Shown one piece after another: positions 5,968 to 60,571 of a DNA stretch of 64,000 bases. This stretch comes from an uncultured Caldilineales bacterium (GTDB taxonomy: Bacteria > Chloroflexota > Anaerolineae > J102): contig CAZMDD010000046.1 of NCBI GenBank assembly GCA_964565065.1, forward strand, positions 5,479 to 69,478. Direction: 5' to 3'. How positions within the stretch are numbered: the stretch's first letter is position 1; each line of letters opens with the position of its first letter. Made by a program: the position numbers and the translations under genes. The notes below the pieces were generated by a model that made no database searches, was not told the origin of the DNA, and was given only the letters and a program-made list of their open reading frames with translations.

Positions 5968-6110
5968 GTTACTACTAAGGTGGCCCGGCTAGAAACCACG
6001 AAGACACGAAGCCACAAAGGCACGAAGAAAAGAAAAAGCTTTGAAATTCTTGGTGTTCTTGGTGTCTTTGCGCCTTTGTGGTGATTGAAGTCGGGTACGT
6101 TAGTAGTTAC
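5968..6110 (-). mobile_element. MITE copy 1 (about 143 bp, inverted orientation) with a perfect 8-bp target-site duplication (TSD) AATTTTGA
   Basis: The terminal inverted repeats are GTTACTACTAA...TTAGTAGTTAC. The interior is near-identical to the seven other copies. AATTTTGA sits directly on both sides (5960-5967 and 6111-6118). Confidence 0.8.
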
Positions 6111-6148
6111 AATTTTGATAGTTATTCAGTTCTTTTGGAGCGTATCTT

Positions 6149-8206
6149 ATGAGACGACCAGCTAGTGGTGATTCAAGAAAAAGTATCCTCCTCTTGGTGA
6201 CATCCGCCCTGTTCGCTTTATTTCTGGCAGGATGTGCTAACGCCGATGTGACCCCTCAGGCCATCCCAACCAATGCCTCTCAACCTGCTACCGCAACACT
6301 GGTACCTCCTGTAGCAACGCCAACGCCTTTGCCCACAGCCACCGCCACACCAACACCAGCACCGCTAACATCAACAGACATCTTTAATGCTGTTTCTCCG
6401 GCAGTGGCTTTCATCGACACGCCCGCAGGTTCAGGCAGCGGCTTTCTTATCGAAGATGGCTACATTGTTACGAATGCGCATGTCGTTTGGCCCTTTACTT
6501 CTGTGCGTGTCACCTTTCCCGACAAAACAGAATTCAAGACTGTTCCTGTCCTTCGTTGGGATTTGATGACGGATATTGCAGTGGTAGGGCCTGTCGATAC
6601 CAACATCACTCCCCTACGCCCGATTGATGGCGAAGACTATGCCATTGGGAGCGATGTTTATCTCATTGGCTATCCGGGTGAGGTGGAGGACTTTCCGCAA
6701 CCGACACTCTCCAGCGGACTCATTTCGCGCAAACGTGAATGGGATTTTATGAAACTAACCTATTTTCAGACCGATGCCGCTGCAGTGGAAGGACAAAGCG
6801 GCGGCGTGTTAGTCACTGAAAATGGAGAAGTCATTGGCATTGCCGGATTCAACGCAGCGAAGAACAAATTCGGGATGATAGCTTCCGCTACGGATTTGAT
6901 GCCGCGCGTCCAGGCAATGATTCAGGGCGAAGATGTGGATGGCATCACCGATCATGCCATGTCCACGGGCGTTACCGCCAGTAATCAGCATCTGGTTTCA
7001 CTGGGCAGCTTCTGGGAGACCGCTGCCTTTGTCGTATGGGAAGAGCCGGGCACCGATGTCCAGGTCGAGATAACCAACAATCGCACGCAGAAGATATATC
7101 TTTCGGTGCTGGATGTCAATGGCGAGCCCGTAAGTTTTGGGCCGCAACATAATCTTGCCGTAACTCAAGGGCGTTTTGTCACGACACTGGACGCCCCCTA
7201 CTTTATCCTTGTTGCCAGCGATGCCGCAGTGGATAGCGGGATCATCTTATCGGATAAACTTTTGACACCTTACAAAGATCACGACGACAACCGCAGCCTT
7301 CACCCAGGCGAAAGCCATATCGGCACGATCGATGAGCCTTCTGATTTTGATGTCTTTAATGTGACATTGCAAAAAGATGAGACAGTTTATTTTAAAGTCG
7401 AGTCCATGATGATTGACGCTGTGCTCATCATTGACTCTGTATTCAACGGGCCCGATGAAATTTATGCCATGTCCGTTGATGCAGATGGCGTTTTTGGAGA
7501 GAATGCAGAGATTACTTTCACAGCGCCACGTAAAGGTGTCTATCATGTATTGGTGGGCGATGTCAATACCAACAAAATCGGCGGTTATCATTTAAGCATG
7601 GATAGACCGAATGAGGATGCACCAACGCCTGTTGTGCCAACGCCTACCCCTACTCCGACACCTACGGCCACACCCATAGTGACCGAAATGGGGGCGATGA
7701 TAATTTTTGATGGTGATGAGCAGAATCCTTACAGCATCCCATACCCCGCCGTCATGCAGGACATGAGAGGCACAAACGTATGTCAAGAATCGATGATTGT
7801 TTGCGCGCGTCATCGCATCTCCCACATTGGTCGTGCTGATTTTGCTATCTTTGATGCCGCCACCTTACTGACAGCCAGCCATGAGCAACTTGTCGAAGTT
7901 CTAAAGAACAGCATTGCAACGCAGGGGCTATCTTTACAAAGCGAAGAGACTTTTACCAATGCCAATGGCCTTGAGGTGACCATTTTTCATGTACTCGGTT
8001 TGCGGACCGATGGCTGGTATATTCTTCATGGTGATAAGGAACACGTTTTCTTTGGTCTCTTGGCGATTGCTTCAGTTAAGGAATTTTCGGAAATGAATAA
8101 CGATGAAAAGGCGTCGTTGGAAAAAGCCCTCAATCATTCCAATCTAAGTGATGTTCCAGCTTTGGTGCGTTATATGGCTGATCATCTTGATGTTATCAAG
8201 GACTAA
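6149..8206 (+). CDS. Secreted lipoprotein with a trypsin-like (S1) serine protease domain and a C-terminal pre-peptidase (PPC)-like domain
   Basis: It has a lipobox (LFLAGC), PT-rich linkers, and His (TNAHVV), Asp (TDIAVVG) and Ser (EGQSGGVLV) triad contexts. GGQSGG replaces the usual GDSGG. The GGYHLSM segment looks PPC-like. Confidence 0.75.
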   Translation: MRRPASGDSRKSILLLVTSALFALFLAGCANADVTPQAIPTNASQPATATLVPPVATPTPLPTATATPTPAPLTSTDIFNAVSPAVAFIDTPAGSGSGFLIEDGYIVTNAHVVWPFTSVRVTFPDKTEFKTVPVLRWDLMTDIAVVGPVDTNITPLRPIDGEDYAIGSDVYLIGYPGEVEDFPQPTLSSGLISRKREWDFMKLTYFQTDAAAVEGQSGGVLVTENGEVIGIAGFNAAKNKFGMIASATDLMPRVQAMIQGEDVDGITDHAMSTGVTASNQHLVSLGSFWETAAFVVWEEPGTDVQVEITNNRTQKIYLSVLDVNGEPVSFGPQHNLAVTQGRFVTTLDAPYFILVASDAAVDSGIILSDKLLTPYKDHDDNRSLHPGESHIGTIDEPSDFDVFNVTLQKDETVYFKVESMMIDAVLIIDSVFNGPDEIYAMSVDADGVFGENAEITFTAPRKGVYHVLVGDVNTNKIGGYHLSMDRPNEDAPTPVVPTPTPTPTPTATPIVTEMGAMIIFDGDEQNPYSIPYPAVMQDMRGTNVCQESMIVCARHRISHIGRADFAIFDAATLLTASHEQLVEVLKNSIATQGLSLQSEETFTNANGLEVTIFHVLGLRTDGWYILHGDKEHVFFGLLAIASVKEFSEMNNDEKASLEKALNHSNLSDVPALVRYMADHLDVIKD

Positions 8207-8212
8207 TTATCG

Positions 8213-10237
8213 ATGAAACAGAACAACCTTCTAAAGCTGATTATTGGCCTTTTAGGCATAGCTCTTTTGATGAGCGCTTGTTCCGCCGCGTCGGAAACGC
8301 CTGCGCCTGCTACAGCTACAGCTACGCCTCTTCCCCCAGCTACCAGCACCCCAGAACCCACGGCGACCCCCGTACCCAGCCCTACGCCAACTCCGGCCCC
8401 ACTGAGTCCTACCCAAATTTTTGACACCGTTTCGCCCGCTGTGGCCTTCATCGATACAATCGTCGGCACGGGCAGTGGGTTCCTCATCAAAGATGGATAT
8501 GTTGTTACCAATGCTCACGTGGTATGGCCCTTTGCTGATGTGCGCATCACCTTTCCCGATGGCAGCGAGTTTATGGATACACCTGTCTTGAGTTGGGATT
8601 TGATGGCCGATATTGCGGTACTCGGGCCCATCGAGACTGAATTGCAGCCTTTGGAGCCTATCGATGGTGAGAAATCGGTTATCGGCAGCGATGTTTACCT
8701 CATTGGTTATCCCGGCGAGGTTGACGACTTCCCGCAACCCTCCATATCGCGTGGGCTCATTTCTCGGCTGAGAGAGTGGAACCGGGAAGCGATTACTTAT
8801 TTCCAATCAGATGCAGCCATTGCAGGTGGGCAGAGCGGAGGCGTTTTGGTTTCAGAATTCGGCCAAGTCATTGGTATTTCGGGATTTAGTTTTGCCGACC
8901 ACGAATTTGGCATCATTGCCTCGGCTGCCGATATTATGCCGCGAGTGCAGCGCCTCATTGATGGCGAAAATCTGGATGGCCTGCGGCGACGACCATTCGT
9001 GCAGAAAGATACGGGAAGCACCGAAGCACCTATCAAGACAGAGCAAGTGCTGGACAATAAAATCTTTGTTTTTTGGCCAGAAGTAGGAGAACGGGTACAC
9101 ATCAAACTGGAAGGAATGCCCAGTCTTATCTTTTGGATTCGTGACGCCGCTAAAAACATGCTATCCCTGGATCCAAAAACCAATCTCCCATTTTCTCGCG
9201 AGATTGAATTCCGCGCCGCCATCAAAGCCCCCTACTTCATAACTGTCCTGGATAATTGGGGGCGATGGGCCGAGGGTACGTTGGTTTCAAACGTTCCGGT
9301 AACAGTCTTCAACGATCCTGATGAAATGCGTCCTGTGCAGTTGATGGGACACACCGTGAGCGCCTGCCTTGATGTACCGGGCGATATTGATGTTTTCCCC
9401 ATCGAGCTCAAAAAGGGACAAACGATTCATGTTCGCACCGAATCGGTAATGATTGACCCACTATTGACCATTGAGCGGGCAGCAGTTTACTCGCAAGATA
9501 AACTGGCACTAGACAATGACTCGGGCGGTGGCATTTTTGGCACAGATGCCGAGTTATCCTTTACTGCACCTGAAGATGATCGCTACATTCTGGTTATCCG
9601 CGACACGAGCAATTGGAACACTGGCGGCTACTATCTGACAGTGGAGGCCTTTGAGAAAGGGCAGCCAACGCCCATTGCTCCTACGCCATTGCCGCCCTCT
9701 GTTTCAACTGATATTGGCGAGATGCGGCGTTACACCAGCGCCTTCAAACCACGATTTTCGATTCAGTATCCTGTCGAGTGGCGTCCAAAGACCGCATCCC
9801 CTCTCTGCAGTTCGCCATCTGTGACATGTTTGGGCAATGAGCTTAATGGTGTAGCAATGATGGTAATTGGTGATTATAAGGTAACTGCAGATCGGTCATT
9901 GGAAGAAGTCGCAAAACTCCTATTTTCCAATTCGATTCAGGATATTGGAGGGAGTGAACAAGAAGTCGTGACCACTTCACGAGGACACGAATTTTTGCTG
10001 ATGCACATCGCACCAGAAGATGTTGCCGTTGACACATGGATAACTCTGACATTCTACAAGAAAAAACCGGTTGTCCTTATTTTTACCAGGGCAGATGTTG
10101 ATAAATATGCTGTTGTGCAAAAACCAGAGGGGCTTGTTACGCCCGCAAATAGAGATCAAGCCTTCGAGGGAGGCGCCGAGGCTTTTGAAATTTTAGTCAG
10201 ACATATTGTCGAAAGTTTTGATCAGCCGAAGGAGTAG
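8213..10237 (+). CDS. Tandem paralog of the upstream secreted S1-like protease lipoprotein
   Basis: The architecture matches the upstream gene: lipobox LLMSAC, PT linker, TNAHVVWPF, ADIAVLG, GGQSGGVLV and GGYYLTVE. A PT linker is followed by a divergent C-terminal domain. Confidence 0.75.
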   Translation: MKQNNLLKLIIGLLGIALLMSACSAASETPAPATATATPLPPATSTPEPTATPVPSPTPTPAPLSPTQIFDTVSPAVAFIDTIVGTGSGFLIKDGYVVTNAHVVWPFADVRITFPDGSEFMDTPVLSWDLMADIAVLGPIETELQPLEPIDGEKSVIGSDVYLIGYPGEVDDFPQPSISRGLISRLREWNREAITYFQSDAAIAGGQSGGVLVSEFGQVIGISGFSFADHEFGIIASAADIMPRVQRLIDGENLDGLRRRPFVQKDTGSTEAPIKTEQVLDNKIFVFWPEVGERVHIKLEGMPSLIFWIRDAAKNMLSLDPKTNLPFSREIEFRAAIKAPYFITVLDNWGRWAEGTLVSNVPVTVFNDPDEMRPVQLMGHTVSACLDVPGDIDVFPIELKKGQTIHVRTESVMIDPLLTIERAAVYSQDKLALDNDSGGGIFGTDAELSFTAPEDDRYILVIRDTSNWNTGGYYLTVEAFEKGQPTPIAPTPLPPSVSTDIGEMRRYTSAFKPRFSIQYPVEWRPKTASPLCSSPSVTCLGNELNGVAMMVIGDYKVTADRSLEEVAKLLFSNSIQDIGGSEQEVVTTSRGHEFLLMHIAPEDVAVDTWITLTFYKKKPVVLIFTRADVDKYAVVQKPEGLVTPANRDQAFEGGAEAFEILVRHIVESFDQPKE

Positions 10238-10352
10238 CAAGAAGCAGTCCGTCAGCATCCTCTCTGCTTTTCATTTCCCTGCCGGAACGTGGTATACTTT
10301 TGCCACGCAAGACCGGCATTACTGCCAAGACCCCATCTCCCCGAAATCTCTT

Positions 10353-10898
10353 ATGAAAGAAAACCGTTATCAACCAAGAAAACGACAGCAGCGCCCGCAA
10401 TCACCCTGGGCGGCTCTGCTTATTCCCTTCCTGGCCATTGTCATCACTGGCGCCCTGTTTTATGTGCTGGCAACCATGCTGGGAGGTGGCGTCGCACCCG
10501 TGCCCACACCTACACAGGCGCAAGCTGTTTCCCAGGCCGAAGCACAGTCCTCGCCCACGCCCACGGCTGCGCCCGACACGCCCACGCCCACGCCCGAGAC
10601 GCCTACGCCCGTGCCCACGCCTACACCCACACCCGCGCCCGCACCCGACGTTTTACAAGTCGGAGGCAAAGCCACGGTCAACGCTGAGGCCGGCCTGCGG
10701 GTGCGCAGCGGGCCCGGAACCAACTATGAACTGGTGATTACTTTGCCTTATGCCATGGTTGTGAAGGTGGTCGATGGCCCCAACCGCGCGGATAGCTACA
10801 CCTGGTGGCAAATCGAATTCTCGACACCTGATGGCGAGAAACAACAAGGCTGGGTTGCTGGCGATTTCCTTGATCCCGGCATTCAAAATTACAATTAG
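10353..10898 (+). CDS. Membrane-anchored bacterial SH3 (SH3b) domain protein
   Basis: It has a TM helix, a PT-rich linker and a C-terminal SH3b-like domain (GLRVRSGPGTNYELVITLPYAMVVKVVDG...WWQIEF...GWVAGDFL). The start is placed at the ATG at 10353. Confidence 0.6.
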   Translation: MKENRYQPRKRQQRPQSPWAALLIPFLAIVITGALFYVLATMLGGGVAPVPTPTQAQAVSQAEAQSSPTPTAAPDTPTPTPETPTPVPTPTPTPAPAPDVLQVGGKATVNAEAGLRVRSGPGTNYELVITLPYAMVVKVVDGPNRADSYTWWQIEFSTPDGEKQQGWVAGDFLDPGIQNYN

Positions 10899-10921
10899 CA
10901 CCCCCCTCAAAATAATTAATT

Positions 10922-11002
10922 GATGTTACGCAAATGACAGCCCTTGACCTTTAATCTTTTGCCACGAAGGCTCGAAGGTGACGAAGAGTTGATGCGTAAC
11001 AT
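10922..11002. repeat. A 10-bp perfect inverted repeat (ATGTTACGCA...TGCGTAACAT) flanks a CGAAG-rich core. It may be a strongly eroded, miniaturised relative of the MITE.
   Basis: Seen in sequence. The ends resemble the MITE terminal inverted repeat (AATGTTACGAC versus ATGTTACGCA), and the interior GCCACGAAGGCTCGAAGGTGACGAAG resembles the MITE core CCACGAAGACACGAAG. Confidence 0.3.
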
Positions 11003-11025
11003 GAGTAATGAAGAACGTCCGGCTG

Positions 11026-12132
11026 TTACAGGCTCGGGCGTTTTTTGTTGCTCGTTCTAATACGTTTGCGCATGTTCACCATGACCAGCACAGACTCGAA
11101 TCCCAGCGCCAGCAAAGCATCGATGGCTGCTTGCTGGTAATCGTGCAGCGTAACATGGATGGGGCGGGCGGGTTGCATTTGCAGATAATGCAGCGCGTGC
11201 ATCAGCAGGGGGGCACTCCATGCCTGACGCAACGCCGGATGCAACAGCAAATCAATGCGATGCCCATTATTCTGCATCACATCCACATCCAGCACGCCCA
11301 TGATTTCTTCGCCAGCAAACACCCCCCATCGCACCTTGTGCCGCAAACTCAGCCAACGGCTCAACGCCCGCTGCCAGCCGGGCGAACTGCCCTCGTGAAA
11401 ATAGCGCGAGCGATGCGGAGCCCACCATCGGGCCTCGGCAGGCACAACACGATTGATGAGATAACGCACAGCGTGCCAGTCATCGTCGCACAGCATGCGC
11501 AGCTCGTAGCCGGTGGGCAACGAAAATGCGGGCAGCTCGGGCACCCTTTCGACACGCAAACGATGTTCTACGACAAGAGGTTCAAAACTCAGACGCTGAT
11601 ACATGCCCAACGCAATAGCATTACTGGCCCGCACCTGCAGCACCGCCCATTGTCCCCCTTGCTCGGCAATATAATCCAGCACCATCTTCATCAACTGGCT
11701 GGCAATGCCTCGCCCTCGCCACGCTTCATCTACCGCCACATTGGCAATAAGATAACGTCCCGGAAAACGGGGCACAGGCTGCGTAGTGACATTGGCCACC
11801 ACTGTCCCTGTCTCCTCCCACACAAACCCGTCCATAATATCCTGAGGCCGACTTCCTGCTGGCAGAAAAAAATTTAGCAGCGGGCCAAATTGTGCTGTCA
11901 GACGTAACTCACGCAGCGCCGCACGCCCGGCATCATCCATCTCGGGCCCGAAAGCCTCGCCGATAATGTTGACGATGGACTTCAGGTCACGCCGAAAATC
12001 CAGGGGACGAGGACCACTTTTGGGGCCTTCGCGTGCTGCGTGAATGCTAATCATGCGTGAAGTTGGGGGGGGCGGTATGACCTCATGGATACCTGAACAT
12101 GAAACGAGGACGATGAAGGAATCACCGTCCAT
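11026..12132 (-). CDS. GNAT family N-acetyltransferase (two-domain)
   Basis: It has an acetyl-CoA binding motif (VDEAWRGRGIASQLMKMVLDYIAEQG) and a second GNAT-like half. The true start may be the internal Met near 12054. Confidence 0.65.
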   Translation of the reverse strand: MDGDSFIVLVSCSGIHEVIPPPPTSRMISIHAAREGPKSGPRPLDFRRDLKSIVNIIGEAFGPEMDDAGRAALRELRLTAQFGPLLNFFLPAGSRPQDIMDGFVWEETGTVVANVTTQPVPRFPGRYLIANVAVDEAWRGRGIASQLMKMVLDYIAEQGGQWAVLQVRASNAIALGMYQRLSFEPLVVEHRLRVERVPELPAFSLPTGYELRMLCDDDWHAVRYLINRVVPAEARWWAPHRSRYFHEGSSPGWQRALSRWLSLRHKVRWGVFAGEEIMGVLDVDVMQNNGHRIDLLLHPALRQAWSAPLLMHALHYLQMQPARPIHVTLHDYQQAAIDALLALGFESVLVMVNMRKRIRTSNKKRPSL

Positions 12133-12141
12133 CGTTATTGC

Positions 12142-13899: not shown

Positions 13900-14049
13900 A
13901 ATAATTCCTCCGAAAAATAAAAACCGCAGGCAGAAACGGCATCCGCGCGGCAACATGACGCATTATAAGTCGAAACTGTTGTGCTGGCAAGCTACCCTAT
14001 AAATAGCGCGGGCGTGGTCTGCAAAACGCTGCCAAATCGGGCCTGCAGA

Positions 14050-14208
14050 GTAACGACTAACGTACCCGACTTCAATCACCACCAAGGCGCAAAGACACTA
14101 AGAACACCAAGCATTTCAAAGCTTTTTCTTTTCTTCGTGCCTTTGTGCCTTTGTGGCTTCGTGTCTTCGTGTCTTCGTGGTTTCTAGCCGGGCTACCTTA
14201 GTCGTAAC
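14050..14208 (+). mobile_element. MITE copy 2 with a near-perfect 8-bp target-site duplication (CCTGCAGA / CCTGCGGA)
   Basis: The terminal inverted repeats are GTAACGACTAA...TTAGTCGTAAC. The interior carries an extra CTTCGTGT unit. The flanks match in 7 of 8 positions. Confidence 0.8.
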
Positions 14209-14221
14209 CCTGCGGACCTCT

Positions 14222-15220: not shown

Positions 15221-15225
15221 GAGAG

Positions 15226-15894: not shown

Positions 15895-16001
15895 GCCCGA
15901 AGTATAGTCGATTGCCAGGTATGCGGCAAAAAAGTCTGGAGGAACAAGTTTCGTGGGCTTCTGCAATTCGTGTTAAAATGAATTCCTAGCCTATTTCATT
16001 C

Positions 16002-16143
16002 GTAACGGCTAACGTACCCGACTTCAATCACCACAAAGGCACAAAGACACTAAGAACACCAAGCATTTCAAAATTTTTTCTTTCTTTGTGCCTTTGTGGC
16101 TTCGTGTCTTCGTGGTTTCTAGCCGGACTACCTTAGTCGTAAC
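16002..16143 (+). mobile_element. MITE copy 3, with GGC replacing GAC in the left terminal inverted repeat
   Basis: GTAACGGCTAACGTACCCGAC...CTTAGTCGTAAC. The interior is highly similar to the other copies. No clean 8-bp target-site duplication is present, although AGCCTATT(T)CATTC recurs on both sides. Confidence 0.75.
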
Positions 16144-16186
16144 ATTTATAGCCTATTCATTCTCTCTCATCCTGGAGTTATTCTTT

Positions 16187-17134: not shown

Positions 17135-17182
17135 TGGCGGGGAGGGCGGGGGACTCGCAGCATCCCTGCCCTCCCATTGCTT

Positions 17183-17222
17183 GTGTCTTAGTGGTTTCTA
17201 GCCGGGCTATCTTAGTCGTAAC
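17183..17222 (+). mobile_element. Partial MITE copy 4 (right-end fragment only, about 40 bp)
   Basis: GTGTCTTAGTGGTTTCTAGCCGGGCTATCTTAGTCGTAAC matches the 3' terminal 40 bp of the element. It lies just upstream of the avtA stop. Confidence 0.55.
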
Positions 17223-17224
17223 AT

Positions 17225-18478: not shown

Positions 18479-18593
18479 AAATCCTCCTGATTAGATGTCC
18501 TGCCTGTATCGTTACGTTGCGACTGTGACTTGCTATTTTACCCTCTTTGCGTGAATTTGCAGAATTAGCCGCGTATCGATAATAATGTGAACC

Positions 18594-21420: not shown

Positions 21421-21510
21421 AAAAAGCATTTTAAGAAACACAAGCTGGGGCATGATGTCAAGCATTTCACTACAATGCACTACTGCTTTATGTGAAGTTC
21501 CCAAGCGCAG

Positions 21511-22821: not shown

Positions 22822-22845
22822 GTATTTTATGTCTACTTTGTCGAA

Positions 22846-35403: not shown

Positions 35404-35643
35404 ATGAAACGATTCCAACAACTTTCCGGGCCAATAAAGATTGGTCTGGCCGCGGCGGCTTTGGCCATTGCGCTGGTACTCATCGGTATCGCCAAAGGGA
35501 CAGTGCCTGCCAATCCGCTGAGCGTACTGCTGGCACTGCTGATTGGCGGCGTGAGCTGGTTCAGTGTGGTTTGGGCCATTGCTACTGCTGCCCGCGATGT
35601 CGAAGAGGATTTGGCCAGCGTACCACCTGCCGAAAACGACTAA
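35404..35643 (+). CDS. Small two-TM membrane protein whose stop codon lies inside the MITE terminal inverted repeat
   Basis: AAGGAAAAG lies 7 nt upstream of the ATG at 35404. It has two hydrophobic helices. Its TAA stop is the TAA of the MITE left repeat (ACGACTAA). Confidence 0.4.
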   Translation: MKRFQQLSGPIKIGLAAAALAIALVLIGIAKGTVPANPLSVLLALLIGGVSWFSVVWAIATAARDVEEDLASVPPAEND

Positions 35644-35775
35644 CGTACCCGACTTCAATCACCACAAAGGCGCAAAGACACTAAGAACACCAAGCATTTC
35701 AAAGCTTTTTCTTTTCTTCGTGCCTTTGTGGCTTCGTGTCTTCGTGGTTTCTAGCCGGGCTACCTTAGTCGTAAC
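35633..35775 (+). mobile_element. MITE copy 5 (left terminal inverted repeat AAAACGACTAA, right intact)
   Basis: The interior and the right terminal repeat are near-identical to the other copies. No target-site duplication is present. Confidence 0.75.
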
Positions 35776-42307: not shown

Positions 42308-42351
42308 AGGTTGAAGAGCGGGTCATTGGAATAGTCTTTGTGAATTTCAAC

Positions 42352-42494
42352 GTAACGACTAACGTACCCGACTTCAATCACCACAAAGGCGCAAAGACAC
42401 GAAGAACACCAAGCATTTCAAAGCTTTTTCTTTTCTTCGTGCCTTTGTGGCTTCGTGTCTTCGTGGTTTCTAGCCGGGCTACCTTAGTCGTAAC
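42352..42494 (+). mobile_element. MITE copy 6 with a perfect 8-bp target-site duplication (ATTTCAAC)
   Basis: The terminal inverted repeats are GTAACGACTAA...TTAGTCGTAAC. ATTTCAAC sits at 42344-42351 and 42495-42502. Confidence 0.8.
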
Positions 42495-42606
42495 ATTTCA
42501 ACTAAGTAAGCGCGAAGAAGTTATTAAGGCACCAAGACACGAAGAAAAATCTGTGGCATCTGTGGTTGCCATCTTCGCCATTGGTGGAGATACGCAGCTA
42601 CTTAAT

Positions 42607-47004: not shown

Positions 47005-47114
47005 CAGTTGGGGATTGGGCGCATGATGCCAACGCACACGGGGGCATCATGCGCGGGCGTAGCGTGGCGCGCCTGACTCGTGCATTTTTCTTGCTGCTCT
47101 GGCTCTGTGCTACA

Positions 47115-49555: not shown

Positions 49556-49558
49556 AAC

Positions 49559-49655
49559 GTAACGACTAACGTACCCGACTTCAATCACCACAAAGGTACA
49601 ACGACACTAAGAACAGCAAGCATTTCAAAAACTTTTTCTTTCTTGGTGCCTTTGT
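49559..49655 (+). mobile_element. MITE copy 7 (5' two-thirds only, degenerate and truncated at the right end)
   Basis: The left end GTAACGACTAACGTACCCGACTTCAATCACCACAAAGG is intact, starting 3 nt after the ugd stop. The similarity decays after about 95 bp. Confidence 0.55.
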
Positions 49656-49731
49656 GCGCTTGGTGGTACACTCTGGATAACGATGAATTGTTATATTTCA
49701 ATTTTCATAGCATCACCTACTAAAGCTGCTG

Positions 49732-51006: not shown

Positions 51007-51025
51007 TGGGTGACTTCGGCGCTTG

Positions 51026-52348: not shown

Positions 52349-52710
52349 TGCTAAGAACAGGTGTCGATATTATTGACATTGGCCGGGTGGAGCGTGCCCT
52401 GGCCCGACACGGCCATGCCTTTTTGCAGCGTGTTTACACGCCTGCTGAAATCGAGCTTTATAAACAGCGCACACAATCGTTAGCTGCGCGTTGGGCGGCC
52501 AAAGAGGCGGTGGCCAAAGCCCTGGGCACAGGCATCGGACCAGTGGGCTGGCAAGAGATTGAAGTGTTGGAAGATGCCTTGCGGGCGCCCACCTTACGCC
52601 TGAGCGGGCGCGCAGCCGCGCGGGCGCAAGCGTTGGGGCTAACACAGTGGGCCATCAGTCTTTCGCACACCCAAGAGCTGGCCACAGCCTTTGTCGTGGC
52701 ATCGGGATGA
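52345..52710 (+). CDS. acpS: Holo-[acyl-carrier-protein] synthase
   Basis: A 121-aa protein with the motifs GVDIIDIGR and WAAKEAVAKALG. Confidence 0.85.
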   Translation: MMLRTGVDIIDIGRVERALARHGHAFLQRVYTPAEIELYKQRTQSLAARWAAKEAVAKALGTGIGPVGWQEIEVLEDALRAPTLRLSGRAAARAQALGLTQWAISLSHTQELATAFVVASG

Positions 52711-52963
52711 TTTTCTGCCCGGAATCGCCAGATTTGGCAGGAAATTACTGGTCGTGATTATTTTGGGCTGATGGTCGCTGTATCCGCTATCCAGAAAGAA
52801 CTGCCAAGGCACAAAGACACGACGAAAAAGGGACTGAAAAAGAAGGGGCCTCACCGAGGGCGGAGCTGGTGGTTTTGCGTAAGACTCCTCACTCCCGTTC
52901 ACAGAACGTTTCATCCCTCTGCGCCCGTGGCCGAACTGCGCCCCGCGTGCTATAATCGCAATC

Positions 52964-54331: not shown

Positions 54332-54334
54332 GCA

Positions 54335-56152
54335 TTGACCCTTATGAAAGCCCTCCGCTCTGCCTCTTTTTGGACAGCCATCTTGCTGAGCTTCTTTGCC
54401 ATCGCCCCCTTGCTGCGGCCTGGCTACTTTTGGGCTGCGCACGATGCCCGGCACGATGTTTTCTTCATTTTGCAATACAACATCACCTGGGAACAGGGCA
54501 TCCTCTTTCCGCGCTGGTCGCCCGATTGGGCCTTTGGCTATGGCTATCCATTTTTCAACATCTATGCGCCCGGTGCGACCTTTTTGGGCACGCTCCTTTA
54601 TCGACTATTGCCCCTGACGCTGGAAAACGCGGTCAAAGCAACCTTTGGCGTTACCCTGCTTATCAGCGCAGCCAGCATGTGGCTTTTTGTGCGGGATTGG
54701 CTGGGCGAGCGGGCCGCATTGGTGGCCGCAGTGGCCTTTGTTTATGCGCCTTATCATCTGTTGGATGTGTATGTGCGGGCTGCCATGGCCGAAAGTTTGG
54801 CCCTGGCCCTGCTACCCCTGGCCCTGTGGGCGCTGCGACGCACTGTCAGGGAGCCCAGTGCGCGCCACATGGTACTCACCGCCCTGACCTACGCGGCCAT
54901 TCATCTTAGTTCCAATTTGGTGGCCCTACTGTTTACGCCGGTACTGGGGCTTTATCTGCTGCTGCTGGTCTGCCAACGGGCGCGAGCAGAGCAAGATTCT
55001 TCTTTGTTTTCCCTTGCCTCTTTATCTCTTTGCGTAAGATATATCTTTGCACCCGCCGCGGGCCTGCTTCTGGGCGTCATGCTGGCCGCGTTCTTCATCC
55101 TACCTGCACTGGCTGAAAAGAATTTTGTCAATCTGGGGCAATGGTATAGCGGCTACTATGATTTTCACGAGCATTTTGTTTATTTTGCCCAACTTTTCGA
55201 TCCTCGTTGGGGGTTCGGCATTAGCACGCCCGGGCCTCATGATCCCCTCAGCTATCAACTGGGCCTGGCACTCTTCTTACTGGCGGCATTGGCAGCCTGG
55301 GCCTTTTTGCGTCGTCCGGGCCAAGAGCGGGCCGAAATCGGCTTCTGGCTGCTCATCTTGCTGGGAAGCGTGTGGTTGACTACCGCTGCTTCGACCCTGG
55401 CCTGGGATTTTGTACCCATGGTAGCCATGGCGCAATTTCCGTGGCGTTATCTGACGCTGGCTGTGCTTGCGTTGGCGCTGCTGGCCCCGGTTATCCTTAC
55501 CATTGGCAGCTACAAGATGAGCGAATCGACGCATGTGCGCCATTCATGGCTTATTCCCTTGCTGCTTTCGGGTCTGATTATCTTTGCCAGCAGCCATTAT
55601 CTGCGCATTCAGGCCATCACGCCTCCGCCCGGCGGTGCTACCCTGGCCGGCCTGATGGAATTCGAACGCAGCTCCGATGAAATGACAGGCATGACCGCTA
55701 CGGCGCAGGATGTGGCACATTGGTCACCTCTGGCCGATTTGCACATGGCGGGGCAACCTGTCACGACTCAGGTGGATTATGGCCTGGTGCAGGCCAATGA
55801 GCATCTGGCTGTGGATTCGCTGGAACACAGTGTCATGGCCGAAACTGTGTGGGTGCAAGCTGATGCGCCCGGACAAAGCGTTCCCTTTTTACGGCAATGG
55901 TATCCTGGTTGGACGGCCACCCTGCTGGACCCTGACACACGCGCGGTCCTCCAGCGCGTTGCCCTCACCCCCAACAACGTTCGCGATCCCTACGGACTCA
56001 TCACCGTGCCTGTGCCCCAGGGACGCTACTTGTTGCGCCTGAGCTTCGAGGATACCCCCATCCGCAAAATTGGCAACACCCTCTCAATCCTCACGCTGTT
56101 TATTTTGGCTGCTCTGCTGCTGCCCTGGCGTAAAAATGTGAGGATGCACTGA
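54335..56152 (+). CDS. Polytopic membrane protein, putative GT-C-like glycosyltransferase, paralog 2
   Basis: Its N-terminus (LLRPGYFWAAHDARHDVFF...RWSPDWAFGYGYPFFNIYAP) is shared with paralog 3. It has more than 10 TM helices. Confidence 0.5.
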   Translation: MTLMKALRSASFWTAILLSFFAIAPLLRPGYFWAAHDARHDVFFILQYNITWEQGILFPRWSPDWAFGYGYPFFNIYAPGATFLGTLLYRLLPLTLENAVKATFGVTLLISAASMWLFVRDWLGERAALVAAVAFVYAPYHLLDVYVRAAMAESLALALLPLALWALRRTVREPSARHMVLTALTYAAIHLSSNLVALLFTPVLGLYLLLLVCQRARAEQDSSLFSLASLSLCVRYIFAPAAGLLLGVMLAAFFILPALAEKNFVNLGQWYSGYYDFHEHFVYFAQLFDPRWGFGISTPGPHDPLSYQLGLALFLLAALAAWAFLRRPGQERAEIGFWLLILLGSVWLTTAASTLAWDFVPMVAMAQFPWRYLTLAVLALALLAPVILTIGSYKMSESTHVRHSWLIPLLLSGLIIFASSHYLRIQAITPPPGGATLAGLMEFERSSDEMTGMTATAQDVAHWSPLADLHMAGQPVTTQVDYGLVQANEHLAVDSLEHSVMAETVWVQADAPGQSVPFLRQWYPGWTATLLDPDTRAVLQRVALTPNNVRDPYGLITVPVPQGRYLLRLSFEDTPIRKIGNTLSILTLFILAALLLPWRKNVRMH

Positions 56153-56181
56153 ATCATCGATTCCCAATCTTTTCTTCTCCC

Positions 56182-57909
56182 ATGCCCCGGTCCCGCTCCC
56201 CTCTCATCCTGCTCATTCTTTTGAGCCTTCTGGTTTTGGCCCCATTACTGGCCTCCGGCTACTTTTTGCGCGCCCACGATGCCCGGCATAGCCTCATCTG
56301 GCTGGTGGAGTATGATCAGGGCATTCGTAGCGGCTTTTTGTGGCCTCGTTGGGCTCCAGATCATTCGCAGGGCTTTGGGTATCCGTTGTTTACTTTTTAT
56401 GCGCCCTTTGCCTTTATCATCGCCGAAGGCTTTCATTTGCTGGGAGCCAGTATTGTGGGGGCAGTCAAGCTAACCTGGGCGCTGGCGACCCTTTTAGCAG
56501 GTGTAAGTATGTACCATCTGGCCCGACGCTTGTGGGGTATTGGGCCTGCGTTCATTGCCGGTTTGCTTTACATGGTCGCGCCTTATCATCTGGTCAATAG
56601 CTATGTGCGCGGTTCTCTGGCCGAATTTGTGGCCCTGGCTCTTTATCCGTGGGTTATCGACAGTTTTTTGTTGCTGTTGCGACGCAAGACCATGCGTAGC
56701 ATCGTGCCTGCTGCACTTAGTCTGGGCTTGCTGATTATGACTCACAGCGTTACCTTGATGTTGTTGCCGCCGCTGCTGGCCTTGTTCATTCTTTATTGGC
56801 TGCTGCTGGATTGGCGGCAGCGTGGGCGGTGGCCATGGCGGACGACATACTATGCTTTAGCTGCGGGGCTGCTGGGCGGTTTGCTGGCTGCCATCTTTTT
56901 GCTGCCCGTGCTGGCCGAAACTCGATACATCGTTGTTGATCAGTGGCTTCCCGCTGAAAGCTACAATTATCCTCAGCAATTTCTTTACCTTTTTCAACTG
57001 TTTGATTTTGCTTGGGATTACGGTTTTGCTTTGCCCGGGCCCGATGATGGCATGAATCTTTCTATTGGCTTGTGGCTGGTTATTCTGGGACTGGCTGCGC
57101 TGCCGTTGGGCATCAAGTCATTATCCCGCCACCGCGCCCTTTTCTGGTCCTTTTTCATCCTGGCGTTACTTTCACTCTTTGCCACCCAGGCCCCCAGCAA
57201 AATTTTCTGGGATGCGATTCCCATGATCAAATTGGTGCAGTTCCCTTTCCGATTCCTGGCCCCCAGCACGCTCTTTCTTTCGTTGGTGGCTGCCGGAATT
57301 GTGACTGCGCTGTTGCCCGAATCGCAAGAAGCTTTTCATCCCTTGCTGTTGGTGCTGGCTCTGGCAATTTTGTTGGGCTCCTGGCACTATGCTCAGCCGC
57401 AGCACACGCCCGCGCCTCCATCTGCGCAAACGCCTGTCGCCGATATTCAGTTCGAGCTGGATTATCCCGATATGCGGGGCAGCACTGCGTTTGCGGGTGA
57501 CAAACCGGTGACATCGCCCAAGGTGGAGGCTTATCTGGCGGGCCAGCCGCTGCCCCTGGCCGAGATTATCCAGGGAACTGGCAGTGTGGCGAGTATTGAT
57601 CATGGAGCGGGTGTTGAGCAGGTGGCTGTGCTGGCTGATGTGCCCATCACGCTGCAATTTTACACCTATTGGTATCCTGGCTGGCGGGCGTGGGTCGATG
57701 ATCAGGAGGTGGCGGCACGGGCCTCGGGCCCGGATGCCCTCATCACGCTGGATGTGCCCGCGGGCGAGCATCATGTGCGCATCCGCTTTACCAACACGCC
57801 TTTGCGCACCCTGGCCGCCATCATCAGCCTGCTAACAGCGCTCATTTTGATCATCATCCACTTTTGGGATACAATCCGCCTCTCCCTGCCCTTCAACAGC
57901 AATCATTAG
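56182..57909 (+). CDS. Polytopic membrane protein, putative GT-C-like glycosyltransferase, paralog 3
   Basis: Its N-terminus is LLASGYFLRAHDARHSL...RWAPDHSQGFGYPLFTFYAP, homologous to paralog 2. Confidence 0.5.
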   Translation: MPRSRSPLILLILLSLLVLAPLLASGYFLRAHDARHSLIWLVEYDQGIRSGFLWPRWAPDHSQGFGYPLFTFYAPFAFIIAEGFHLLGASIVGAVKLTWALATLLAGVSMYHLARRLWGIGPAFIAGLLYMVAPYHLVNSYVRGSLAEFVALALYPWVIDSFLLLLRRKTMRSIVPAALSLGLLIMTHSVTLMLLPPLLALFILYWLLLDWRQRGRWPWRTTYYALAAGLLGGLLAAIFLLPVLAETRYIVVDQWLPAESYNYPQQFLYLFQLFDFAWDYGFALPGPDDGMNLSIGLWLVILGLAALPLGIKSLSRHRALFWSFFILALLSLFATQAPSKIFWDAIPMIKLVQFPFRFLAPSTLFLSLVAAGIVTALLPESQEAFHPLLLVLALAILLGSWHYAQPQHTPAPPSAQTPVADIQFELDYPDMRGSTAFAGDKPVTSPKVEAYLAGQPLPLAEIIQGTGSVASIDHGAGVEQVAVLADVPITLQFYTYWYPGWRAWVDDQEVAARASGPDALITLDVPAGEHHVRIRFTNTPLRTLAAIISLLTALILIIIHFWDTIRLSLPFNSNH

Positions 57910-57917
57910 CCATTCCC

Positions 57918-58937
57918 ATGTCTATCCGTCAATGTCCCAATTGCGGGGCACAAGTCAGTCACAAAGCAGATGAATGCTTCATGTGCGGCTATCAATTTCA
58001 TCAGCCGCAACGTGTGCGCGTGCGCGTGCCCTGGGCCGACATCATTCTGGTGCTGTTCATTGCGGCGTTGGTGGCCATCTGGTGGCGCTGGGATGATGAG
58101 CGGCAGGTTTTGGCCCAAACTCCCTCTGCTACCCCCACGTACACGGTCACGCCCACGCAAACGCCTACCATCACGCCCACGCCTACGATTACGCCCACGC
58201 CCACCATCACACCGACACCCACGCCTGTTGTGCATACTGTGCGGCCAGGTGATACGTATCTGGGCATTGCTAATCTTTATGGCATCAAGCTGGATGATTT
58301 GCTGGCCGCCAACAATTTGAAAGTTGATGACATCATTCAGCCGGGGCAAGTCTTGCGTGTTCCGGCAGCCAGCGGCGATGTGGCCTATCCTACGCCCGAG
58401 CCTCTGAGCGGGCGTTTCAACTACGCTGTAGAATTGGGGGACACCGTAGAGGCCATTGCCATTCGTTTGCAAGTCGATCCGACAGTCATTCTTGAAAACA
58501 ACGATATTTCCGATCCAGATCATCTGCAACCGGGCCAGGTGCTCATCATTCCCATGGGATCTGAAATGGCTGATGTCGAGCCAACTATTGTGCCGACACC
58601 GCAGGGGCGACCACAGCCGCCGGTGCTCATCGGGCCCGCCAATGGCAGTGTTCACGCGGGGCCGACCGGGCCATTGCTGCGTTGGGTCTCGGCCCATTTG
58701 TTACCGGATGATATTTGTTATCAGATTAACCTGCGTTACGCAGACCCGCACTTGCCCGAAATTTCTCCCATTTGCACCAAAGCGGGCAGCTTGCGTTTGG
58801 ATAATGCCTTGCGCCCGCCCGCGGATGCCGCGTCCGCGGAAATTCGTTGGTGGCTTCGCCTGGTGCGTTTGACCCGGGATGGTGATGTTTATCCTGTCAG
58901 TCTACCCAGCGCTGTGCGACGTTTTGAGTGGCATTAA
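57918..58937 (+). CDS. Zinc-ribbon / TM / PT-linker / double LysM domain protein
   Basis: It has an N-terminal CPNCG...CFMCG zinc ribbon and a TM helix. The linker is TPTITPTPTITPTP. Two LysM motifs are present (HTVRPGDTYLGIANLYGIKLDDLLAANNL and YAVELGDTVEAIAIRLQVDPTVILENN). Confidence 0.7.
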   Translation: MSIRQCPNCGAQVSHKADECFMCGYQFHQPQRVRVRVPWADIILVLFIAALVAIWWRWDDERQVLAQTPSATPTYTVTPTQTPTITPTPTITPTPTITPTPTPVVHTVRPGDTYLGIANLYGIKLDDLLAANNLKVDDIIQPGQVLRVPAASGDVAYPTPEPLSGRFNYAVELGDTVEAIAIRLQVDPTVILENNDISDPDHLQPGQVLIIPMGSEMADVEPTIVPTPQGRPQPPVLIGPANGSVHAGPTGPLLRWVSAHLLPDDICYQINLRYADPHLPEISPICTKAGSLRLDNALRPPADAASAEIRWWLRLVRLTRDGDVYPVSLPSAVRRFEWH

Positions 58938-59242
58938 ACTTTGGCAGTGGGTATTTTGTCTGAGGGGAATTGTTCGCAGTTGGGGGGGCGGGCGTAGACG
59001 CCGGGAAGCATTTACATAAACGTTCAGTGGGCAGCTATGAAGCTTTTTCGCACAGCGAGTCATTCTGGTTCTTTCGGATTTCAGGGGGTCTGGCGCTGTC
59101 AAGCCGCCGGATCACGGATCCGGCTCAAGAGCGGGGGCTCCCAGGGCGGATTCGCAATCCGCCCGGCCTATCACTCCTGAAACCCAGTTGAGCCAAAAAG
59201 CACTCAAATGACCGGGATTGGGCAAGAGCAGCAAAATTCAAT

Positions 59243-59296
59243 AGATTTCTCCATAACTTCTCCACAATTTCTCCCGAATTCCTCCAAGATTCTCCT
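59243..59296 (+). repeat. Five direct repeats of (A)TTTCTCC / TTCCTCC at a regular 11-bp spacing
   Basis: TTCTCC occurs at 59247, 59258, 59269, 59279 (as TTCCTCC) and 59290. The array lies 83 bp upstream of the DUF2202 gene start. Confidence 0.5.
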
Positions 59297-59378
59297 TTAT
59301 ACTAAAGGCAGCGTTAAGGATGACCTTAGCGATTCGCAATCCAACCATTTACGCCTACGATTTACGGAGGATCCTATA

Positions 59379-60290
59379 ATGAAACCTTTTAAAACTTTTA
59401 TCGCCACACTTTCAGTTGGGGCATTGACACTCATCCTGGCAGCCTGCGGAACGCCCGTTTCGGCTGACGATGTTACATCGATGGTCAATTCGGCGCCCGT
59501 TGCACAACCTACGGTTAAGGCCAATGTCAGCAATACGCCGGCAGCGTTGCCATCGGGCAGTGGTTATGGCCAGCAGGGCAATGGCCGCGGGGCCGCACAG
59601 CAGGCTCAGGGCGGGCAGTTGCCCTTGGGCACCAATCTGCCGGCAGCAGGAACGGTCGATGATCAGGAAATCGCCGACTTGCTGCAAATGCGTGAGGAAG
59701 AAAAACTGGCCCGGGATGTTTATATCACTCTGGGCGAACAGTGGAATCTTGCCGTTCATACCAACATTAGCCGCTCTGAGCAGCAACACATGGATGCCAT
59801 CGGTTTTTTGCTGGAACGCTACGGCATTGCCGATCCGGTGGGTGATAACCCGGTGGGGGTTTTTACCAATTCCGATTTGCAAGCGCTTTACGACCAGCTC
59901 GTAGCGCAAGGTCGTCAATCCATGGCAGAATCGCTGAAAGTGGGCGCGACGATCGAGGATGTTGATATTTATGACTTGCAGAAGGCGCTCGCGAACACCG
60001 ACAACGCAGATATTCAAGAGGTTTATCGCAGCTTGATGGCTGGTTCTGAGAATCACATGCGAGCCTTTGCGGGGACGCTGATTCAACAGACCGGCGAAAC
60101 CTATACACCACAATACATTGAGCAATCTACTTTTGATGCCATCATGGCAGCCAGCAATAGTCACGGTCATGGTGGCTATGGCCAGGGCCGCCAAGGTCAG
60201 GGGGGGCAGGGCCAGGGTGGCTATGGTCAGGGCAAAGGTGGACGTGGCGGTCAGCGCGGTCAATCCTATAATCTTGCTCCCAACAGCTAA
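59379..60290 (+). CDS. DUF2202 (ferritin-like superfamily) lipoprotein with a Gly/Gln-rich C-terminal tail
   Basis: It has a lipobox (LILAACG), a DUF2202 signature (LLQMREEEKLARDVYITL...SEQQHMDA) and a tail GHGGYGQGRQGQGGQGQGGYGQGKGGRGG. Its RBS is GGAGGA. Confidence 0.6.
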   Translation: MKPFKTFIATLSVGALTLILAACGTPVSADDVTSMVNSAPVAQPTVKANVSNTPAALPSGSGYGQQGNGRGAAQQAQGGQLPLGTNLPAAGTVDDQEIADLLQMREEEKLARDVYITLGEQWNLAVHTNISRSEQQHMDAIGFLLERYGIADPVGDNPVGVFTNSDLQALYDQLVAQGRQSMAESLKVGATIEDVDIYDLQKALANTDNADIQEVYRSLMAGSENHMRAFAGTLIQQTGETYTPQYIEQSTFDAIMAASNSHGHGGYGQGRQGQGGQGQGGYGQGKGGRGGQRGQSYNLAPNS

Positions 60291-60428
60291 CGCTCATCTT
60301 TTCATTCAGTATCACCCATGATCCATCGGGCCGGAAAGCTAATTTTCGACCCGATGGTTTTATCTGAACGAAGCCTCTCTTCCTTTTCTCCGGACCTTGA
60401 GGGCATAAGATTGGAAGGAGATTGTATT

Positions 60429-60571
60429 GGTTACTACTAAGGTCGCCCGGCTAGAAACCACGAAGACACGAAGCCACAAAGGCACGAAGAAAAGAAAAAG
60501 CTTTGAAATGCTTGATGTTCTTGGTGTCTTTGCGCCTTTGTGGTGATTGAAGTCGGGGACGTTAGTCGTTA
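60429..60571 (-). mobile_element. MITE copy 8 (inverted orientation) with a perfect 8-bp target-site duplication (TTGTATTG)
   Basis: GTTACTACTAAGG...GTTAGTCGTTAC. TTGTATTG sits at 60421-60428 and 60572-60579. Confidence 0.8.

Follow-up and report, generated by a model that had tools for sequence, protein, structure and literature searches.

The 64-kb window (the whole 64,000-nucleotide stretch of DNA analysed) was found to contain a near-palindromic element of ~143 bp in six full copies, together with one 3' fragment and one chimera, and it is highly likely that these copies make up a non-autonomous DNA transposon family (MITE). The element is short and non-coding, carries terminal inverted repeats (TIRs), is flanked by target site duplications (TSDs) of fixed length and is present in many dispersed copies, as is characteristic of MITEs. 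It represents a recent, large MITE expansion in an uncultured lineage, occupying well over a hundred intergenic sites. MITEs are a known kind of genome parasite, and this family is not known to have been described previously.

At about 8 copies per 64 kb, the element accounts for ~1.8% of the window, and the sequence of its left end, GTAACGACTAA, occurs there 11 times with no more than one mismatch, compared with 0.10 occurrences expected by chance. A BLASTN search using the consensus proposed in a first-pass annotation of this DNA recovered all eight sites claimed there, and the copies, which were extracted with their flanks, were 88.7–100% identical to the consensus. The copies and their TSDs are located as follows.

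5958–5960 and 6149: stop codon of a thyX-like gene and start of a protease gene, the neighbours of the 5968 copy
5960–5967: TSD AATTTTGA, left copy, sharing the final base of the upstream stop codon
5968–6110, minus strand: full family-A copy, 143 bp, 96.5% identical to the consensus (BLASTN)
6111–6118: TSD AATTTTGA, right copy, perfect match to the left
14042–14049: TSD CCTGCAGA, left copy, 7/8 match to the right copy
14050–14208, plus strand: full copy, 159 bp, with two additional octamer units in the right arm, between PrsW-like and aspS genes
14209–14216: TSD CCTGCGGA, right copy, 7/8 match to CCTGCAGA on the left
16002–16143, plus strand: full copy of a 142-bp subfamily, with divergent genes either side and no clean TSD
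17179–17222, plus strand: right-end fragment, 44 bp, 2 nt from the stop codon of an aminotransferase gene
35633–35775, plus strand: full-length copy, beginning AA rather than GT but matching the consensus at every base from 35635 on, with no TSD
42344–42351: TSD ATTTCAAC, left copy, perfect match to the right
42352–42494, plus strand: full copy, 143 bp, 99.3% identical to the consensus, with convergent genes either side
42495–42502: TSD ATTTCAAC, right copy, perfect match to the left
49559–49724, plus strand: chimeric variant, ~166 bp, with no TSD
60422–60429: TSD TTGTATTG, left copy, perfect match to the right
60430–60572, minus strand: full copy, 143 bp, ending 24 nt before the start codon of cytochrome b (60597)
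60573–60580: TSD TTGTATTG, right copy, perfect match to the left

Five of the full copies lie exactly where they had been placed and the last, at 60430–60572, had been placed one base off. The fragment reported at 17183–17222 is genuine but extends to 17179, whereas the supposed partial copy at 49559 belongs to a recurrent chimera of ~166 bp, of which it forms the left part. Family A provides the left 107 bp of this chimera (49559–49665) and a different repeat module the right ~60 bp. The same junction was found at L102, L078, L055 and L010. The duplications claimed for the window were recovered, those of AATTTTGA, ATTTCAAC and TTGTATTG being perfect and the CCTGCAGA/CCTGCGGA pair matching at 7/8 positions.

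A metagenome scan matched at least 117 loci, in agreement with the hundreds of copies per genome extrapolated earlier from the window, and the matches listed, in ~1.07 Mb of loci belonging to the same organism, yielded 109 distinct full-length copies. In this set, L010 and L061 are 99.85% identical to each other, and L128, L131, L133 and L134 are 99.7–99.95% identical to the window. Mean identity of the copies to the consensus was 96.1%, and their majority consensus departs from the one first proposed at two positions, 138 and 40, the latter being evenly split.

Both ends of the element read GTAAC/GTTAC in almost all 109 copies. The 11-bp ends had been described as exact reverse complements, but the left end, GTAACGACTAA, matches the right end read as its reverse complement, GTTACGACTAA, at 10/11 positions. 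The imperfect TIR reaches about 19 bp (GTWACGACTAASGTASCC) and is conserved across the 109 copies. Four octamers in tandem (NCACRAAG and its complement) make up each arm, and the centre is AT-rich. Copy lengths range from 101 to 159 bp with clusters at 143/142, 135/134 and 127/126, deletion runs among the copies are of 8 nt (21 times), 9, 16 and 24 nt, and the 14050 copy in the independent assembly L128 falls 24 bp (three octamers) short of that in the window, indicating that the octamer arrays gain and lose units in 8-bp steps after insertion. The element has no coding capacity, as its sole open frame is a 47-codon read-through with homologues only in other copies. The artefactual peptide previously seen to recur at the copies is the product of this plus frame, which is open throughout.

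The proposal that the copies arose by transposase-mediated insertion with 8-bp duplications was borne out by the larger set. Perfect 8-bp TSDs flank 79/109 copies and a further 14 have TSDs matching at 7/8 positions, together 93/109 (85%), and two or more mismatches were seen in 16/109, including the window copies at 16002 and 35633. Exact matches were found at k=8 only, and when the flanks were moved by 1–15 nt as a control no pair had fewer than two mismatches. The target pattern is N-W6-N, with the six central positions AT-rich, and the TSDs are 71% A+T compared with 56% in the outer flanks. A 75-bp element with ends GTAAC...GTTAC was found nested inside a family-A copy (L124:397–471) with AAACTTTT on both sides; as AAACTTTT is single in other family-A copies, this is a precise filled versus empty site for the 75-bp element. 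The family-A copy at L083:841–983 has no counterpart at the orthologous intergenic position of a related species (L117), where the flanking genes are 90–94% identical at the amino acid (aa) level. For the window copies, the empty-site check suggested earlier gave no precise empty allele, the same insertions being present in all four independent assemblies compared (NCBI MAG, JGI 3300039273, JGI 3300028908 and ENA ERZ27262694). The exact 8-bp TSDs, together with a nested insertion with filled and empty sites, identify the element as a MITE.

Like the element found here, Correia/CREE (Neisseria), MITEPsy1 (Pseudomonas syringae), RUP, ERIC and Nezha (cyanobacterial) are short, non-coding, multi-copy and largely intergenic, but slippage-prone arms of tandem octamers set this family apart from classical bacterial MITEs. 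Correia elements use a TA target, whereas the TSD here is 8 bp at N-W6-N. The TSD of MITEPsy1, which shares with the other classical bacterial MITEs and with the element found here TIRs, a TSD of fixed length, hairpin potential and dependence on a transposase acting in trans, is also different, being 4 nt at CTAG/YTAA (PMC3189936). Sequence similarity to these MITEs was not found in the searches made. When plasmids were searched with the consensus, the only match, in two plasmids of Rhizobium rhizogenes, was one of 31 bp that covered the octamer region, and a scan of viral contigs with the element returned nothing. Literature searches found no paper containing the end or core sequences of the element and none tying MITEs to IS66. 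A T-box leader, a sortase gene and a PASTA-type Ser/Thr kinase were also seen in the DNA examined and may hint at a lineage of monoderm type, such as Chloroflexota.

The ends are common to at least three families, as elements that share them and have perfect 8-bp TSDs were found at L116:8714–8887 (174 bp) and L126:9568–9782 (215 bp). A DDE-type transposase supplied in trans would bind these shared ends and cut AT-rich DNA with an 8-bp stagger, with gap repair then producing the duplication, and the one enzyme may also move at least two other families whose interiors are unrelated (174/75 bp; 215 bp).

The mobilising enzyme may belong to the IS66 family, a tentative assignment made because GTAA-type termini with 8-bp duplications are the IS66 signature. 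To our knowledge, this combination has been described only for IS66 and its ISBst12 group, and we know of no octamer arrays described in the arms of IS66 elements. IS66 inverted repeats are 20–30 bp long and begin GTAAGCG, with 8-bp direct repeats (PMC11946415), and the members ISPsy43 and ISPa97 have ends GTAACCGTCC... (PMC12888890), which begin GTAAC as does the MITE. In place of the canonical GTAAGCG, some members start GTAACCG (PMC11946415, PMC12888890). ISCro1, ISPsy43, ISPa97 and IS66 resemble the MITE in the GTAA start, the 8-bp TSD and imperfect inverted repeats of ~20 bp. However, IS66 elements are 2.5–3 kb in size and carry tnpA, tnpB and tnpC, whereas the MITE is 143 bp and lacks these genes. 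The likeness of the inverted repeats stops after 4–5 nt and is lost beyond GTAA(C), with 9/16 positions matching, by eye, the ends of ISCro1 (GTAAGCGTCAACGG, read from its sequence).

There is close to an even chance that the MITE was instead moved by another family that makes 8-bp TSDs (ISL3, IS256, IS1, IS6 or IS1595) or by an undescribed one. A TSD of 8 bp is a property of several IS families (ISfinder family tables), the target duplications of IS1 and IS256 being 8–9 bp. However, the termini of ISL3, IS256, IS1 and IS6 typically begin GG or GA rather than GTAA. ISL3, IS256 and IS1 had been put forward as possible sources and the 8-bp TSD fits all three, but the GTAAC ends do not fit the typical GG.../GA... 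termini, making these families a poorer fit than IS66, for which GTAA ends and 8-bp repeats are both recorded (PMC11946415, PMC12888890). Two further points favour a source other than IS66, namely that the TIR likeness to IS66 is weak past GTAA (PMC12888890) and that a tblastn search of ~1.1 Mb of DNA from the lineage found no IS66 transposase.

The earlier statement that no cognate transposase gene lies in the window was correct, and no autonomous element with the MITE ends was found either there or in about 1.1 Mb of lineage loci. The proposed search for a full-length IS with the same terminal repeats (GTAACNNCTNASGT) likewise yielded none in the window and the ~1.1 Mb of lineage DNA. When inverted pairs of the TIR up to 6 kb apart were screened for a TSD, only MITEs came up. 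Query proteins for IS66 (ISCro1 TnpA/B/C), IS3, IS5 and IS110, taken from E. coli plasmids, returned nothing when used in tblastn against the ~1.1 Mb, the sole match to ISCro1 TnpA/B/C, L024, being an unrelated chance locus. Neither pRi1724 nor pO157 contained an IS66 reference. Stubs at contig ends beginning with the TIR all belonged to family A or the 174-bp family. No parent IS was found between MITE halves split 0.2–8 kb apart, where the one case of 2 kb, L078, has within it a gene that does not encode a transposase, nor among TIR matches outside known copies, multi-copy ORFs in the lineage loci or the 10 kb past each window end. A degenerate TIR pattern, searched against the contigs of species-representative genomes, gave six chance matches among those listed with no element behind them. 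IS copies are collapsed in short-read assemblies, so that failure to find an element in these loci is weak evidence either way.

The copies show no sign of a selected host function, and it is improbable that the host has additionally recruited the MITE as a terminator, an insulator or an outward promoter. On the side of the stop codon the distance is ≤20 nt in 21/77 cases, a long hairpin is predicted, and a -35-like hexamer, TTGAAG, lies 17 nt from the terminal TAC and, with the AT-rich flank, forms a promoter-like site at 6085–6113 that faces the protease gene. However, nearness to stop codons is expected in any case because the targets are AT-rich, a -10 match of at least 4/6 was present in only 37/109 copies, and promoter-like and terminator-like sites in the scanned region were not in excess of the shuffled expectation. 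The suggestion of a terminator or insulator role also gains no support from the placement of the copies, as their context (tandem 48, divergent 21, convergent 9) nearly matches the proportions of intergenic length, and the two orientations relative to genes occur at 25:23. All copies are intergenic, as first noted, when six cases recorded as inside an ORF are read as artefacts of the open frame of the element, the ORFs concerned being short (about 90–115 aa) and spanning the copy.

That the copies are structured-RNA genes or cis-elements, conserved by selection on a long hairpin, is very improbable. The hairpin proposed earlier for both RNA and DNA is strongly predicted, with RNA folds of -50.2 kcal/mol (z -6.3) on one strand and -59.6 kcal/mol (z -6.5) on the other and a DNA fold of -24.1 kcal/mol (z -4.0). 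However, Rfam 15 had no family reaching the gathering score over the copies, either in the window or across another 143 kb, the copies are not biased in their orientation relative to genes, and exact 8-bp TSDs and a nested insertion are the marks of transposition. Covariation, which had been named as evidence that would overturn the MITE assignment, was limited to one pair with double changes in many copies, which is unpaired in 43/102 distinct sequences and marks subfamilies, in a test whose power is low, the copies being about 96% alike. That the element can form a hairpin follows from its palindromic build and provides no evidence that it is an RNA gene. High-copy, intergenic palindromes are also expected of REP/BIME-like elements spread by an HUH/Y1 enzyme (RAYT or IS200/IS605-type), and several other palindromic repeat families occur in the genome, but elements moved by Y1 transposases make no target duplications, so this reading is refuted by the 8-bp TSDs with at most one mismatch in 93/109 copies and is further opposed by the presence of TIRs.

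For the MITE family, a broader proposal, which is rather unlikely as a whole, is that family A is the most abundant of at least three unrelated non-autonomous elements served by one IS66-type or undescribed transposase, with the octamers acting as subterminal binding sites for the transposase or an accessory protein. The octamers are NCACRAAG in family A, and GACGAAG/GACGTAT and CACAGATG in the sister repeats. A TSD of 8 bp is likewise seen in eukaryotic hAT-type MITEs and Ac/Ds-like elements, both arms of which carry short subterminal repeats, and in Ac/Ds these repeats are transposase-binding sites. The element described here differs in its bacterial host and its termini, with no evidence of a hAT transposase, and the resemblance serves only as an analogy for how the octamers might act. 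If the proposal is true, the octamer arrays would be a bacterial counterpart of Ac/Ds-type subterminal repeats.

The finding is of practical value for annotation and assembly. Five JGI 'hypothetical proteins' (P0001–P0005) are read-throughs of the element and hence false genes, and the ORF from 60540 begins in a copy, giving a false N-terminal extension of cytochrome b, for which the start is 60597 in the L131 gene call. Contig ends often lie inside copies, short-read assemblies being broken by the element, and it is the main site of differences between assemblies that are otherwise 99.7–99.95% identical. If the enzyme is of the IS66 type, this would be the first high-copy MITE burst known to us that is attributable to the IS66 family, and the mechanism of IS66 and the roles of TnpA and TnpB are poorly understood. 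The clean N-W6-N rule and the several families with the same ends provide a good natural data set for identifying the transposase and, if the enzyme is IS66-like, these elements would be simple substrates with which to study this IS family.

The ~143-bp near-palindromic, non-coding repeat read as a MITE (family A), which has GTWACNNCTNASGT-type inverted repeats at its ends, was searched for in the window by BLASTN using the 143-bp consensus of the first-pass annotation, and six full-length copies, a right-end fragment and a left part were found at coordinates agreeing to within one base with those first proposed. The list also includes a chimeric variant and its counterparts in loci recovered from metagenomes and assemblies of the same or a related lineage (L-numbers).

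5968-6110, minus strand: full-length family-A copy (BLASTN)
14050-14208, plus strand: full-length family-A copy of 159 bp with two extra octamers (BLASTN)
16002-16143, plus strand: full-length family-A copy (BLASTN)
35633-35775, plus strand: full-length family-A copy (BLASTN)
42352-42494, plus strand: full-length family-A copy (BLASTN)
60430-60572, minus strand: full-length family-A copy (BLASTN)
17179-17222: family-A right-end fragment, 44 bp (BLASTN)
49559-49665: family-A left part, 107 bp (BLASTN)
49559-49724: chimeric variant of ~166 bp, the left 107 bp of family A plus another repeat module
L102:4871-5035, L078:9193-9352, L055:1048-1201 and L010:10049-10210: the same chimera

The 11-mer GTAACGACTAA occurs 11 times in the window with at most one mismatch, against 0.10 expected. 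The 11-bp ends had been described as exact reverse complements, but the left end reads GTAACGACTAA and the right end, once reverse-complemented, reads GTTACGACTAA, and the inverted repeat is an imperfect one extending over ~19 bp. Each arm is made up of four tandem 8-bp units (octamers), NCACRAAG in the left arm and its complement in the right. The density of ~8 copies per 64 kb is notable, yet not exceptional for bacterial MITEs. The sequence at 49559, first listed as a partial copy, does begin with family A but is a recurrent chimera, joined at the same point each time to the module GGATARCGATGAAnnGTTAC-ATTTCAnnTTTCATAGCATCACC, which has at least 20 matches of its own; no 8-bp target-site duplication (TSD) was found at any simple chimera boundary.

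The loci examined contain 180 or more repeated segments that are not family A. A ~70-bp family with CACGAAG-type octamers (window 10917-10988), near which the independent Logan contig L008 breaks, has copies of 92-94% identity at L046:12950-13021, L131:8469-8536 and L030:7660-7726. Solo runs of family-A-type octamers lie at 42526-42575 and 52806-52830 (GGCACCAAGACACGAAG; GGCACAAAGACACGACG), and about 20 solo arrays were present in the lineage loci. The run at 42526-42575 adjoins a palindromic repeat of the CACAGATG type (AAAATCTGTGGCATCTGTGGTT), also present in L109, L090 and L072. A tandem repeat unrelated to the MITE, with about six GC-rich units of ~100 bp and palindromes in each (GGCGGGTCTGTGACCCGCC; CCGAGTCGCAGACTCGG), was found at L029:5799-6432 and also in L088.

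The window sequence is part of a 93 kb contig (JBPNTL010000107.1) of the MAG GCA_054029655.1. A metagenome scan with an 18-mer of the left arm recovered at least 117 loci, the majority from IMG sample 3300028908. JGI and ENA assembly loci share 99.7-99.95% identity with the window, and L010 (3300039273) and L061 (3300028908) are 99.85% identical across 10 kb; judged by sequence identity, the scan loci are from the same organism as the window. A few scan loci from other projects were rejected as chance 18-mer matches. Diverged family-A copies (71-87% identity) were found in samples Ga0256835 and Ga0256913, and the Ga0256835 loci represent a related species, with ~78% nucleotide identity between orthologous genes. 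With diverged copies in these two samples and chance matches in other projects, family A looks to be restricted to a narrow lineage. No similarity to Rfam or viral contigs was detectable, two plasmids match over only 31 bp of the octamer region, and no relevant paper carrying the family-A sequence was found. About 1 kb before the window begins, on the same contig, a T-box leader (L133:8580-8870; 108 bits, gathering score 93) precedes a PALP-family gene. This leader, a sortase gene and a PASTA-type kinase are hints of a monoderm-type lineage, for instance Chloroflexota.

Among the matches listed, 79 of 109 distinct full-length copies are flanked by identical 8-mers and 14 more by 8-mers with one mismatch. 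Exact flank identity was seen across the 109 copies at a length of 8 and essentially no other, and when the right flank was shifted by 1-15 nt no pair had fewer than two mismatches. The duplicated 8-mers are 71% A+T, compared with 56% in the outer flanks, and the bias is located in the six central positions, giving a target of N-W6-N. The 8-bp duplications reported for the window copies proved perfect in three and matched at 7/8 in a fourth, while the remaining two copies have none.

At L124:397-471, a 75-bp element with GTAAC...GTTAC ends is nested in a family-A copy and flanked on both sides by AAACTTTT, which is present once at the corresponding position in other family-A copies, providing a filled and an empty site. 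It is an internal deletion of the first of two longer sister elements with unrelated interiors.

L116:8714-8887: sister element, 174 bp, same kind of ends, perfect 8-bp duplication
L126:9568-9782: sister element, 215 bp, same kind of ends, perfect 8-bp duplication

A further copy at L083:8595-8902, with its ends and TSD (GATAAAAC) intact, is split by a ~160-bp element of another family that lacks GTAAC ends, has GACGAAG-type repeats and has similar copies in at least 17 other places in the fetched loci. In the related species, the orthologous intergenic site in L117, bounded by genes of 90-94% aa identity, has no counterpart of the copy seen at L083:841-983, and the spacer is too diverged for a clean empty site. 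No empty alleles of the window copies were found in four independent assemblies, all of which carry the window's insertions.

Observed, then, are 8-bp duplications at AT-rich sites, ends common to families with unrelated interiors, either orientation, nesting and octamer slippage, and family A behaves as classical bacterial MITEs do. Correia elements and MITEPsy1 (PMC3189936) behave similarly, but their TSD length and target are unlike those of family A. A DDE transposase acting in trans would recognise the family-A ends and cut with a stagger of 8 bp, and repair would then duplicate the target. More speculatively, the octamer arrays may be extra binding sites; the arms of sister repeats in the same genome are likewise built from 8-bp periodic motifs.

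Mean identity of copies to the majority consensus is 96.1% (at least 97% in 52 of 109). Copy lengths are quantised in clusters at 143/142, 135/134 and 127/126 bp, with deletion runs of 8 nt (21 times), 9, 16 and 24 nt. The 14050-14208 copy differs from L128:1900-2042 by an indel of exactly 24 bp (three octamers) and four substitutions, in assemblies otherwise 99.67% identical over 14 kb, where the differences are concentrated in MITE copies and include indels in the 16002 copy. Either the copies are truly hypervariable or the assemblies are chimeric between them, and misassembly of repeats could account for part of the 24-bp difference. Positions 6 and 138, paired in the inverted repeat, are G..C in 33 copies, G..A in 34, T..A in 33 and rarely T..C (5), suggesting successive master copies.

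As the first-pass annotation had noted, the window holds no cognate transposase, and none was found in the 10 kb past either end. Split MITE halves, stray TIRs (terminal inverted repeats), multi-copy ORFs, contig-end stubs and tblastn with IS66 TnpA/B/C, IS3, IS5 and IS110 proteins revealed no transposase or parent IS in ~1.1 Mb of lineage loci, nor did a search of these loci and the window for TSD-flanked TIR pairs at spacings of up to 6 kb. This absence is weak evidence, as short-read assemblies collapse IS copies. An ISL3, IS256 or IS1-type transposase had been suggested. The ends of those elements typically start with GG or GA, and the combination of GTAAC/GTTAC ends and an 8-bp duplication suits IS66 better. 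IS66-family inverted repeats are 20-30 bp, start with GTAAGCG and accompany 8-bp direct repeats (PMC11946415), the ends are GTAACCGTCC... in some members (PMC12888890), and the ends of ISCro1, read directly, are GTAAGCGTCAACGG. The GTAA start and 8-bp duplication are common to IS66 and the MITE, but the likeness stops after GTAA(C), for which reason a link to IS66 is rated low, as a tentative connection somewhat short of an even chance.

The copies are intergenic throughout, as first described, and the six cases 'inside' an ORF are short ORFs (~90-115 aa) spanning a copy, which we take to be products of the element's open frame. A proposed terminator or insulator role is not borne out: the numbers of copies in tandem (48), divergent (21) and convergent (9) settings track the shares of intergenic length, and the two orientations relative to transcription are split 25:23. 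On the stop-codon side, the distance is at most 20 nt in about a quarter of cases, and a few ORFs terminate within the element, as AT-rich target preference would yield. A -35-like TTGAAG 17 nt from the terminal TAC makes a promoter-like site possible with an AT-rich flank, as in one case:

6085-6113, plus strand: promoter-like site, 9/12 match, toward the protease gene at 6149 (-35-like TTGAAG; -10 TACAAT, formed by the terminal TAC and the AT-rich TSD)

Such sites are no more frequent than expected from shuffling, and a -10 match of at least 4/6 is given by only 37 of the 109 copies. We find no evidence that the element has been selected for a role in the host. The unit does fold as a long imperfect hairpin, as predicted for both DNA (-24.1 kcal/mol; z -4.0) and RNA (-50.2 and -59.6 kcal/mol on the two strands; z ~-6.3 and -6.5), because of its palindromic build. 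A covariation-supported RNA gene is not indicated: neither the window nor 143 kb of other lineage DNA has an Rfam match that reaches the gathering score and, in 102 distinct sequences (low power at this identity level), only pair 6/138 has double changes in many copies. This pair is unpaired in 43 of the sequences, and column shuffles already attain 95% pairing.

Near the 5968 copy, a thyX-like gene (4940-5960) comprises in every assembly two adjacent ORFs, one of ~149-166 aa and one of 172 aa, each with Thy1 matches; the gene may be split or frameshifted, or these may be two genes side by side. Tandem paralogous genes at 6149-8206 and 8213-10237 encode products of ~680 aa each, in both of which a trypsin-like (HtrA/MarP-type) protease domain at the N-terminus is followed by a long C-terminal region that is uncharacterised.

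The mechanical ORF of cytochrome b (60540-61937) begins with a GTG that lies within the MITE, whereas the L131 gene call places the start at 60597, at an ATG after an AAGGAG motif. Five JGI 'hypothetical proteins' (P0001-P0005) came up in a protein search with the fully open frame of the element, and all are read-throughs of it. The element thus gives rise to annotation artefacts, and family A is a source of false genes and false start calls.
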